Assembly (NCBI GenBank): GCA_022763365.1
Contig: JALEGN010000016.1
Location: 5,556-69,555, forward strand
Origin: Minisyncoccota bacterium
GTDB lineage: Bacteria > Patescibacteriota > Minisyncoccia > Phycocordibacterales > UBA1006
Direction of reading: 5' to 3'
Length of the DNA: 64,000 nt
Shown piece by piece: positions 16,862 through 17,617 of the stretch (position 1 is its first letter; every line of letters begins with the position of its first letter). Position numbers and translations under genes: made by a program. The notes beneath the pieces are model-generated. The model was not told the origin of the DNA. It saw nothing but the letters and a program-made list of their open reading frames with translations, and did not search any database.

Positions 16862-17617
16862 TTACTCTTTTCCTCCGTCTAATTCAGCCTGAAGCTGCTC
16901 AAGTTCATCCCATTTTCCATGCTTTGCAAGCGTAGCTTGTTTTGACCATGTTTTTGGATCGTGACTTGAAAGTCCTGCATCAGCAAGATAATCTCGAAGG
17001 TCTCCTACTTTTGATGACGATAGGTCAGCATAGGTATGAATGCCTTTTGAATTAAAGAGTTCAGCAATTTTTGGGCCAATTCCTTCAATTTTTGTTAAAT
17101 CATCTGAAATTGATTGTGCAGGTGCTTCGGTTGATTCAGAAGATTCTGATTCGTCTTCTTCTGATTCATCAGCATCGTCTTCGTATTCTTCGTCTTCGTA
17201 TTCTTCGTTAACTCCTTTAGCCAATCGATATGGTTGGTCTGAAGTTAGAAGGTTTTCTCGTTCGGTTTTGATCATAATTGATCGAATAAGAGATGCACCT
17301 GATTCTACTTCTTCGGTTAATGCTTCAACGACATCTGGTGTTACATCAAATTTAATCCATCCAAAGTATGCCTGAGTATAGGTATGTTTTTTGTTATTAA
17401 TAACTTTGGTCATTTCATAGGCAAGGTCAATCAGTGCTGGTTGTCCTTCTGAAATCACAATACCTTTGTGTTTAGTAATAAGAGCCACTAGCGCGTCGCG
17501 CTCGTTTCCTAGGTCCCCTTCGTTCACGCTTGGCATCAGAAGATACCCTAATTCGTAAACGCGTGGCTCTGGTGTGTATACACCTTCTTGAGAACCAGTG
17601 TCTGTATTATTTTTCAT
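16862..17617 (-). CDS. rpsF: 30S ribosomal protein S6 fused to an acidic linker and a C-terminal helix-hairpin-helix module
   Basis: Residues ~18-115 are S6 (YELGYLLMPS…YFGWIKFDVTPDVVEALTEEV…IRSIMIKTE). An EEYEDEEYEDDADESEEDESESSE linker follows. Then LTKIEGIGPKIAELFNSKGIHTYADL…VGDLRDYL forms a GIG-type HhH. Confidence 0.8.
   Translation of the reverse strand: MKNNTDTGSQEGVYTPEPRVYELGYLLMPSVNEGDLGNERDALVALITKHKGIVISEGQPALIDLAYEMTKVINNKKHTYTQAYFGWIKFDVTPDVVEALTEEVESGASLIRSIMIKTERENLLTSDQPYRLAKGVNEEYEDEEYEDDADESEEDESESSESTEAPAQSISDDLTKIEGIGPKIAELFNSKGIHTYADLSSSKVGDLRDYLADAGLSSHDPKTWSKQATLAKHGKWDELEQLQAELDGGKE

Follow-up and report, generated by a model that had tools for sequence, protein, structure and literature searches.

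What does a small-subunit ribosomal protein do with a helix-hairpin-helix (HhH) module that it carries on a long acidic linker, and is such a protein a genuine feature of its host? The question is raised by the rpsF gene of a marine CPR bacterium (Paceibacteria), the genome of which is 0.76 Mb in size and 99.4% complete. In the window, meaning the whole stretch of 64,000 nucleotides that was analysed, this gene encodes ribosomal protein bS6, which is located on the platform of the 30S subunit, and continues without interruption into the linker and the module (Table 1). The sequence-only reading of this DNA had placed the fusion at positions 16862-17290. These positions hold only the C-terminal extension, the 3' part of the gene, and the full ORF occupies 16862-17617 of the minus strand. 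The claim that an S6 core, an acidic linker and an HhH module share a single ORF was borne out, with Pfam matches to S6 at residues 21-117 and to HHH_5 at residues 172-208. The acidic stretch singled out at that time corresponds to residues 138-161, and the HhH motif quoted with it starts at residue 174.

Table 1. Location in the window of the fused rpsF gene, its parts and the neighbouring genes.
Feature	Positions	Strand	Basis or remark
rpsF, whole ORF (bS6 core, acidic linker, (HhH)2-like module)	16862..17617	-	251 aa, zero internal stops
rpsF, N-terminal 18 residues ahead of the S6 fold	17564..17617	-	pLDDT <50 at residues 1-15
bS6 core, residues 19-118	17264..17563	-	PF01250 and AF2 model
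Conserved post-core segment, residues 119-133, RENxxxSDQPYKLA-type	17219..17263	-	Family alignment
Acidic disordered linker, residues 134-170	17108..17218	-	Composition and pLDDT <50
Five-helix (HhH)2-like module, residues 171-248	16874..17107	-	HHH_5 and AF2 model
ssb, directly downstream of rpsF	16350..16802	-	TIGR00621, 140.5 bits
rpsR (bS18), final gene of the rpsF-ssb-rpsR group	16109..16312	-	TIGR00165, 94.6 bits
tatD-family hydrolase, upstream of rpsF	18618..19460	-	PF01026, 233.9 bits
RimK-like ATP-grasp gene, 2 kb upstream of rpsF	19762..20775		

The fused gene as the bS6 of its host

The N-terminal part of the protein is recognised by the Pfam family Ribosomal_S6 (PF01250) with 31.2 bits, above the cut-off of 27. 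The equivalog model TIGR00166 gives 19.1 bits, below its cut-off of 42.9, and the protein is therefore regarded as a divergent S6. In the AF2 model, the core follows the fold order beta-alpha-beta-beta-alpha-beta, with strands at residues 19-27, 53-73, 76-92 and 110-118 and helices at 33-49 and 94-105, all with pLDDT above 90. The motif EPRVYELGY, at the start of the core and behind the N-terminus that is predicted to be disordered, is conserved in the alignment of the fused clade. At and after the end of the core, T118, E121, N122, S126, P129 and A133 reach a conservation of 90% or more in the alignment, and the post-core segment that holds most of them is modelled with low pLDDT.

A search of the host genome returned one Ribosomal_S6 match, the fused gene itself (33.5 bits). 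It is near certain that the fused ORF is the sole bS6 of the host and that it bears a lineage-specific addition. The neighbourhood of the gene is also ordinary for its relatives: tatD stands next to rpsF in fused and unfused relatives alike, and ssb follows rpsF at all fused and unfused loci compared. Among the sequencing runs screened, the stretch was found in the probable source run only, and no RNA run was listed.

Conservation and distribution of the fusion

In a search of 5.8 billion proteins, the architecture of S6 plus HHH_5 recurred in over 100 clusters, formed at 90% identity, with lengths of 231-302 aa and identities down to 43%. Where these clusters are named, the names are Patescibacteria, Paceibacteria, Campbellbacteria or Minisyncoccia. 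Among species representatives, 15 fused loci from independent assemblies and studies were collected, and the gene order tatD-rpsF-ssb-rpsR is present wherever the flanks reach. A frameshift or a stop that splits the gene into two ORFs had been named as the way in which the fusion could fail; no such break exists, and the same uninterrupted ORF occurs in all of these clusters and representatives. An artefact, whether a frameshift, a chimeric assembly or a read-through of two genes, has next to no probability and is already refuted by the recurrence of the same ORF and gene order across different studies.

Conservation of the module equals or exceeds that of the S6 core. Identities for module and core, respectively, are 85% and 82% at locus L004, 76% and 61% at L012, and 78% and 50% at L014. 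The fusion is shown to be conserved under purifying selection. In the genus of the host, 15 of the 17 other genomes carry the fused gene, and the two without it are only 70% and 72% complete; no loss of the fusion was found in genomes of the genus that are at least 73% complete.

Beyond the genus, a fused S6 was found in none of 37 genomes that represent 15 further genera of the family. Among 150 genomes sampled evenly from the order, a single further fused S6 was found, in a genome of a different family (G305; 38% identity), and 200 genomes sampled evenly from the class yielded zero others. A survey of S6 across Patescibacteria, which the sequence-only reading had called for, thus places the trait at the level of a genus and not of Patescibacteria as a whole.

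In a tree of the S6 core, 15 fused cores are separated from 65 unfused ones by one branch (SH-aLRT 93), a result that is consistent with a single origin of the fusion in the genus. The branch that leads to the S6 core of G305 is very long, so that the tree fits two origins as well as one. The HEKLP motif in the linker of G305, typical of unfused tails, hints at an independent fusion in that lineage. The tree of the modules, built on 81 columns, is poorly resolved. S6 modules fall into three groups in it, and the modules of the paralogue described below are separate from them and not their sister; one origin of the S6 modules could still be reconciled with such a tree.

The acidic linker and the older tails of S6

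The linker block of the alignment (residues 130-170) comprises 41 aa with a net charge of -16 and 44% D/E. In homologues the linker measures 20-68 aa and contains 19-48% D/E; its composition is kept and its sequence is not. Residues 132-169 have pLDDT below 50 in the AF2 model, which was based on an alignment of 37 sequences.

The acidic tail had been taken as a special property of this gene, and that view does not hold. In related Paceibacteria, S6 proteins without the module have C-terminal tails of 35-65 aa with 20-40% D/E as well, and a short conserved tip, for instance LDKAIEELVA or HEKLPxL, closes many of these tails. In Tsurumaki et al. 2022 (PMC9297842), too, bS6 is one of the proteins listed as large in CPR. 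The acidic S6 tail is therefore old and widespread in the class, and the module capped a tail that existed before it. Since unfused relatives are already acidic-tailed, only the folded module is a lineage-specific addition.

The S6 of E. coli, a substrate of RimK, has a free acidic C-terminus ending in Glu-Glu, to which further glutamates are added. A parallel to this system had been drawn for the encoded acidic tail and is unsupported: the C-terminus of the fused protein is a folded module with a variable end and without a Glu tail. The last residues are GGKE in the host and GGK, GGRE, GGVEK and others in relatives. The RimK-like ATP-grasp gene in the vicinity of the host rpsF was considered in this regard and set aside, for it is absent from the flanks of about 3 kb at other fusion loci.

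Sequence and fold of the module

As the sequence-only reading anticipated, the C-terminal module matches HHH_5 (PF14520) above the Pfam cut-off of 27, scoring 31.2 bits when the full protein is scanned and 33.4 bits when the scan is restricted to the tail. DUF4332 (PF14229), which had been suggested together with it, remains below its threshold of 23.2 with 13.5-15.9 bits; this family matches 75 of 88 close relatives of the module at E<=1e-5. The module holds one canonical HhH motif, LTKIEGIGPKIAE, and the hairpin pattern h-x-x-h-x-G-h-G-x-x-x-A is represented by L-T-K-I-E-G-I-G-P-K-I-A at residues 174-185, where I180, G181 and P182 show a conservation of 90% or higher. The second half has a signature of its own, H-D-P-x-T-W-x-x-Q-A-x-L-A ... 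W-D-E-L-x-x-L-Q. Residues D173, E178, G179, H219, W224 and Q227 are invariant. The module is acidic to neutral, with net charges of -15 to 0 and pI values of 4.1-7.1.

The full-length AF2 model contains a confident five-helix module (residues 171-248), and the module modelled alone has a mean pLDDT of 86; over the two models its pLDDT is 86-94. The pTM of the full-length model is 0.44, as fits two independent domains on a flexible tether. Comparison by VIA-align gave, as best structural matches, the HhH of the helicase-like domain of POLQ (Z 8.2), AF1548 (7.2), NusA AR1/AR2 (6.2-7.1), the N-terminal domain of Rad51 (6.1) and Pol iota and Pol X (about 6), although Z values below about 8 are commonplace for small helical models. 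The top matches are all of HhH type, with some SAM domains from Z 4.8 down, and the N-terminal domain of RadA is also among the fold matches. POLQ, NusA AR1/AR2 and the Rad51/RadA N-terminal domain represent (HhH)2 domains, which the five-helix module, as modelled, resembles at Z 6-8 over about 60-76 residues; NusA AR1/AR2 shares with the S6 module its acidic character. This likeness to (HhH)2 domains is one of fold only; beyond the HhH motif the sequences match at E 0.2 or worse. A Foldseek search of the module against the PDB returned nothing at E<=0.001, with E-values of 0.24 or worse, and because of these weak values the fold is called (HhH)2-like and not regarded as proven.

Several homologues bear the JGI name Flap endonuclease-1-like 5' nuclease. 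In the protein studied here, Pfam finds only Ribosomal_S6 and HhH-type families. The rest of it is a disordered linker, with no PIN-like nuclease domain, and the nuclease name therefore reflects the HhH motif only.

A promiscuous module family and its known carriers

When the 81-aa module was used as a query against 1.84 billion representatives, 6159 clusters were obtained at E<=0.001. The top matches are tandem arrays of 2-15 modules with little else beyond HHH_5 and DUF4332. Such arrays resemble DNA binders of the avidity type, for example topoisomerase V. Among NCBIfam models, the tail matches the C-terminal parts of those for NuoE (E 1.4e-7), PhaH (1.2e-6), L21 (8e-6) and S2 (1.1e-5); the whole-protein equivalog cut-offs are unmet, as expected because the carrier differs. 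Fusions of the module to L27 and L17 also turned up in the homology search. By sequence homology the module is shown to be a member of a large, promiscuous family of the HHH_5/COG3743 type.

The closest counterparts in design are the long bL21 and bS2 proteins of alphaproteobacteria (NF008915/NF008916, equal to PRK12278, and NF008966, equal to PRK12311), which also consist of a ribosomal core, a low-complexity linker and an HhH module. They differ in several respects from the protein studied here, the carrier of which is bS6 on the 30S platform and the host of which is a CPR bacterium. The linker is strongly acidic here and rich in A, K and P there. The modules represent different subfamilies, with E-G-I-G and H-D-P-x-T-W-x-x-Q-A in the S6 fusion as opposed to K-G-V-G and R-D-x-W-x-x-Q-A in the alphaproteobacterial proteins. 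Ribosomal proteins with such tails are a known, unexplained kind, to judge from the curated NCBI models of long L21 and S2, and bS6 adds a carrier to it. No literature was found on a fusion of S6 or another ribosomal protein to an HhH module in Patescibacteria, nor, in the literature searched, on bS6 or bL19 as the carrier, on the acidic leash or on a co-occurring membrane paralogue.

Caulobacter crescentus PhaH (NF045508, matched at model positions 101-211) similarly has an N-terminal part for its cargo and a C-terminal HhH. The cargo of PhaH is the PHB granule and that of the S6 fusion is the ribosome, both of which are large particles. In the passage of the review PMC13052382 that cites Salinas et al. 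2023, the N-terminus of PhaH is reported to bind PHB granules and the C-terminal HhH to bind DNA non-specifically, whereby granules are spaced along the nucleoid.

The same module ends a long, flexible loop in the NuoE extension and in protein-O of the RC-LH1 complex of Dinoroseobacter shibae, the carriers in these cases being respiratory and photosynthetic complexes. By sequence the module is present in two PDB entries, as chain O of 8YY9 (phmmer match to residues 156-225, E 6.5e-4) and in a complex I subunit of 9WQV. Neither 8yy9 nor 9wqv was returned by Foldseek, which fits a module that is unmodelled in both entries. In the cryo-EM structure of D. shibae, protein-O was traced at residues 8-59 alone and the role of its C-terminal domain was called obscure (PMC12079452).

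With a family so promiscuous, occurring in many architectures, and with a fusion limited to one genus and one other genome, the module could be a passenger of little function: mobile and easily fused, it would have been joined to an acidic tail already in place and retained only through chance or for the sake of solubility. Only a slim chance is given to this explanation. The module rides on the sole S6 copy, its loss was not found in the more complete genomes of the genus, and it is at least as conserved as the core across a genus in which S6 itself falls to about 45-50% identity.

A membrane paralogue and fused bL19 in the same genus

The host genome contains exactly one further copy of the module, in a protein of 190 aa (L002, 1480-2052, minus strand). 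This paralogue is composed of an N-terminal transmembrane helix, a basic juxtamembrane motif, a Pro-rich linker and the module, which would lie in the cytoplasm according to the positive-inside rule. The juxtamembrane motif is highly conserved (LGWxIYGLRGYKYWxKRFHRY...GYVEYVPEV). Protein-O, like this paralogue, has an N-terminal membrane anchor. The paralogue module is 45% identical to the S6 module and shares with it the invariant H, W and Q of the second half. It is 60-67% identical to Cytophagales proteins of 170-190 aa (Emticicia, Runella, Leadbetterella), and there are hints in its sequence that it may have been acquired horizontally. Within the family, second matches that hold only the module are confined to the genus with the S6 fusion; G305, in another family, also has both proteins. 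A complex prediction for the S6 module and the paralogue module, run without controls, gave a score of 0.00 and carries no weight either way.

In three congeners (G397, G390 and G400), bL19 is also fused to an acidic linker and the same module, with 119-124 bits for Ribosomal_L19 and 36-39 bits for HHH_5. Most species of the genus, the host included, have an L19 with a long acidic tail and without the module.

Possible roles of the module

We assign a probability of roughly 0.4 to the reading that the S6 module may be a non-specific binder of dsDNA, by analogy with PhaH, and may tether 30S subunits or ribosomes to the nucleoid. That DNA is its ligand, and what it does in the cell, is what we infer for the module; that it adds a nucleic-acid-binding function to the ribosome, as the sequence-only reading proposed, is plausible. 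In such a mechanism the module would grip the sugar-phosphate backbone of dsDNA without sequence specificity, in the manner of PhaH, and 30S subunits or ribosomes would thereby be loosely held at the nucleoid. Repulsion between rRNA and the acidic leash would keep the module off the surface of the ribosome, and the leash might also weaken the binding of the module. Where cells are ultra-small and ribosomes few, the tether could favour translation close to transcription and an even partition of ribosomes at division. By the same logic, the membrane-anchored paralogue would hold DNA against the membrane on its inner side.

Binding of dsDNA is favoured because the canonical HhH motif is intact, the fold is (HhH)2-like and PhaH provides a precedent. 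The presence of DNA-binding folds (POLQ, Rad51/RadA, Pol X and Pol iota) among the top matches also supports a DNA tether, as does the prevalence in the family of tandem arrays that recall avidity-type DNA binders. Moreover, the module is found on bL19, L27 and L17 as well, and its function is therefore not bound to one ribosomal site. Several observations count against the tether. An acidic-to-neutral module on a strongly acidic leash is unusual for a DNA binder and resembles instead the protein-binding repeats of NusA. Many DNA-binding HhH motifs have Pro at the position before the hairpin glycine. An invariant Glu stands immediately before this glycine here (E-G-I-G), and this too argues against DNA. 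Furthermore, cryo-EM has left homologous modules unresolved, and the word used for their function is 'obscure' (PMC12079452).

A role in cis, at the site of S6 on the ribosome, has also to be weighed. [quoted passage not shown] The conserved 15-residue segment right behind the S6 core would correspond, by position, to the site where this Bacteroidetes extension touches the 16S 3' end. The module could accordingly be an RNA element near the mRNA exit and the anti-Shine-Dalgarno sequence, which would modulate initiation through contacts with mRNA leaders or with the 3' tail of 16S rRNA. The likeness to Bacteroidetes lies in the presence of a lineage-specific C-terminal extension on bS6. That extension is, however, a short basic helix packed on the 16S 3' end, whereas here a folded domain is borne on a long acidic leash. 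A disordered leash of 20-68 aa that RNA would repel is ill suited to such a task, and in congeners a protein of the 50S subunit, bL19, bears the leash and module as well, with the module on L21, L27, L17 and S2 elsewhere. Replacement of S1 by the module was considered and rejected, as a four-domain S1 is present in the genome. An RNA element is thus judged very unlikely. The variable, RNA-repelled leash, the bL19 copy and the other ribosomal carriers suggest a tether to something elsewhere and not a fixed task on the platform.

The main rival of the DNA tether is a protein-protein adaptor in the manner of NusA AR1/AR2, by which some protein would be brought to the 30S platform. The AR1/AR2 repeats of NusA belong to the (HhH)2 domains and have the RNAP alpha-CTD or lambda N as binding partners. 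The partners proposed are RNA polymerase, the membrane-anchored paralogue (forming a tether between ribosome and membrane) or another module (forming clusters of ribosomes). An adaptor would suit the acidity of both module and leash, the place of NusA AR1/AR2 among the best structural matches, and the invariant H219, W224 and Q227, which are probably exposed. The co-occurrence of the S6 fusion with the paralogue, within the family only in this genus and again in G305, points the same way. However, the module is attached to very different assemblies, including complex I, RC-LH1, PHB granules and ribosomal proteins, and carriers so different suggest that the ligand is universal and not a single protein particular to one lineage. 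In addition, PhaH, the sole characterised homologue, is reported to bind DNA in the cited passage of PMC13052382. An adaptor is considered unlikely on balance.

A broader scheme is that the modules of S6 and bL19 and the membrane paralogue form one positioning system, which would hook ribosomes and the inner membrane to the nucleoid or, through contacts between modules, to each other. This is a rather improbable arrangement. If true, the system would couple transcription, translation and membrane insertion and would split a few dozen ribosomes between daughter cells at division. The huge HHH_5/COG3743 tail family would then serve bacteria in general as an 'address tag' of their large complexes.

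Implications

The leashed HhH module sits on ribosomal proteins (L21, S2, L27, L17, S6 and L19), on complex I, on a photosynthetic core and on a storage-granule protein, in many phyla. The genus studied here offers a clean natural case: the sole S6 is tagged, the acidic tail is older than the tag, the fusion is fixed in the genus, and a membrane paralogue stands alongside. If the module binds DNA as PhaH does, the ribosomes of these ultra-small cells would be tethered to the nucleoid and not excluded from it. Such tethering would bear on the coupling of transcription and translation and on the inheritance of ribosomes at the lower limit of cell size. If the module is no DNA binder, the question of its ligand touches thousands of protein families.

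Other carriers of the HhH module

The module that ends the acidic leash of S6 is also found on a second ribosomal protein. In three congeners (G397, G390 and G400), bL19, an acidic linker and the same HhH module as on S6 are joined in one protein. In the remaining species of the genus, including the window's own genome, bL19 has an extended acidic tail at its C-terminus and no module, in open frames of 195-251 aa.

A membrane-anchored paralogue of 190 aa also bears the module and, within the family, is confined to the genus having the S6 fusion. It has a Pro-rich linker and a strongly conserved juxtamembrane motif, LGWxIYGLRGYKYWxKRFHRY...GYVEYVPEV. 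Because small Cytophagales proteins share 60-67% identity with its module, this paralogue may have been acquired horizontally. Additional small membrane-anchored module proteins exist in some congeners, with anchors unlike that of the main paralogue.

Location of module-bearing proteins, bL19 and genes near rpsF
Feature	Locus	Positions	Strand	Remarks
Membrane-anchored paralogue, 190 aa	L002	1480-2052	-	Window's own genome, contig C10
Small membrane-anchored module protein	L095	439-849	+	136 aa
Small membrane-anchored module protein	L094	454-1080	-	208 aa
bL19-HhH fusion	L092	559-1356	+	
bL19-HhH fusion	L093	451-1245	-	
bL19 entry	G000, contig C8	237-767		
Fused S6, G305	L097	731-1495	+	Another family
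ATP-grasp protein, 337 aa	Window	19762-20775	-	RimK-like Pfam match, 53 bits; 2 kb upstream of rpsF
ORF, 121 aa	Window	17678-18043	-	Between tatD and rpsF
ORF, 158 aa	Window	18134-18610	+	Near rpsF
ORF, 114 aa	Window	15080-15424	+	Near rpsF
ORF, 78 aa	Window	19496-19732	-	Near rpsF

Gene neighbourhood and S6 tails

The RimK-like ATP-grasp gene of the window was not seen in the ~3-kb flanks of other fusion loci. The four ORFs around rpsF had no Pfam match at E<=0.01, and the 121-aa one matches a single related locus, L005, and that weakly (30%). A fused, Paceibacteria-type rpsF-ssb-rpsR-efp-recJ block, 67-93% identical to that of the window, lies on contig JBLIKX010000024.1 (L008) of a MAG labelled Crocinitomicaceae (Bacteroidota); this contig is probably mis-binned.

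Unfused Paceibacteria S6 proteins (genes of L018-L082) have acidic tails of 35-65 aa, many of which close with a short conserved tip motif, …LDKAIEELVA or …HEKLPxL…. These tips resemble the acidic tip of SSB, of which partner recruitment is a feature. The fused S6 of G305 retains HEKLP, typical of unfused tails, within its linker, and this sequence feature hints that the module was joined to S6 independently in that genome.
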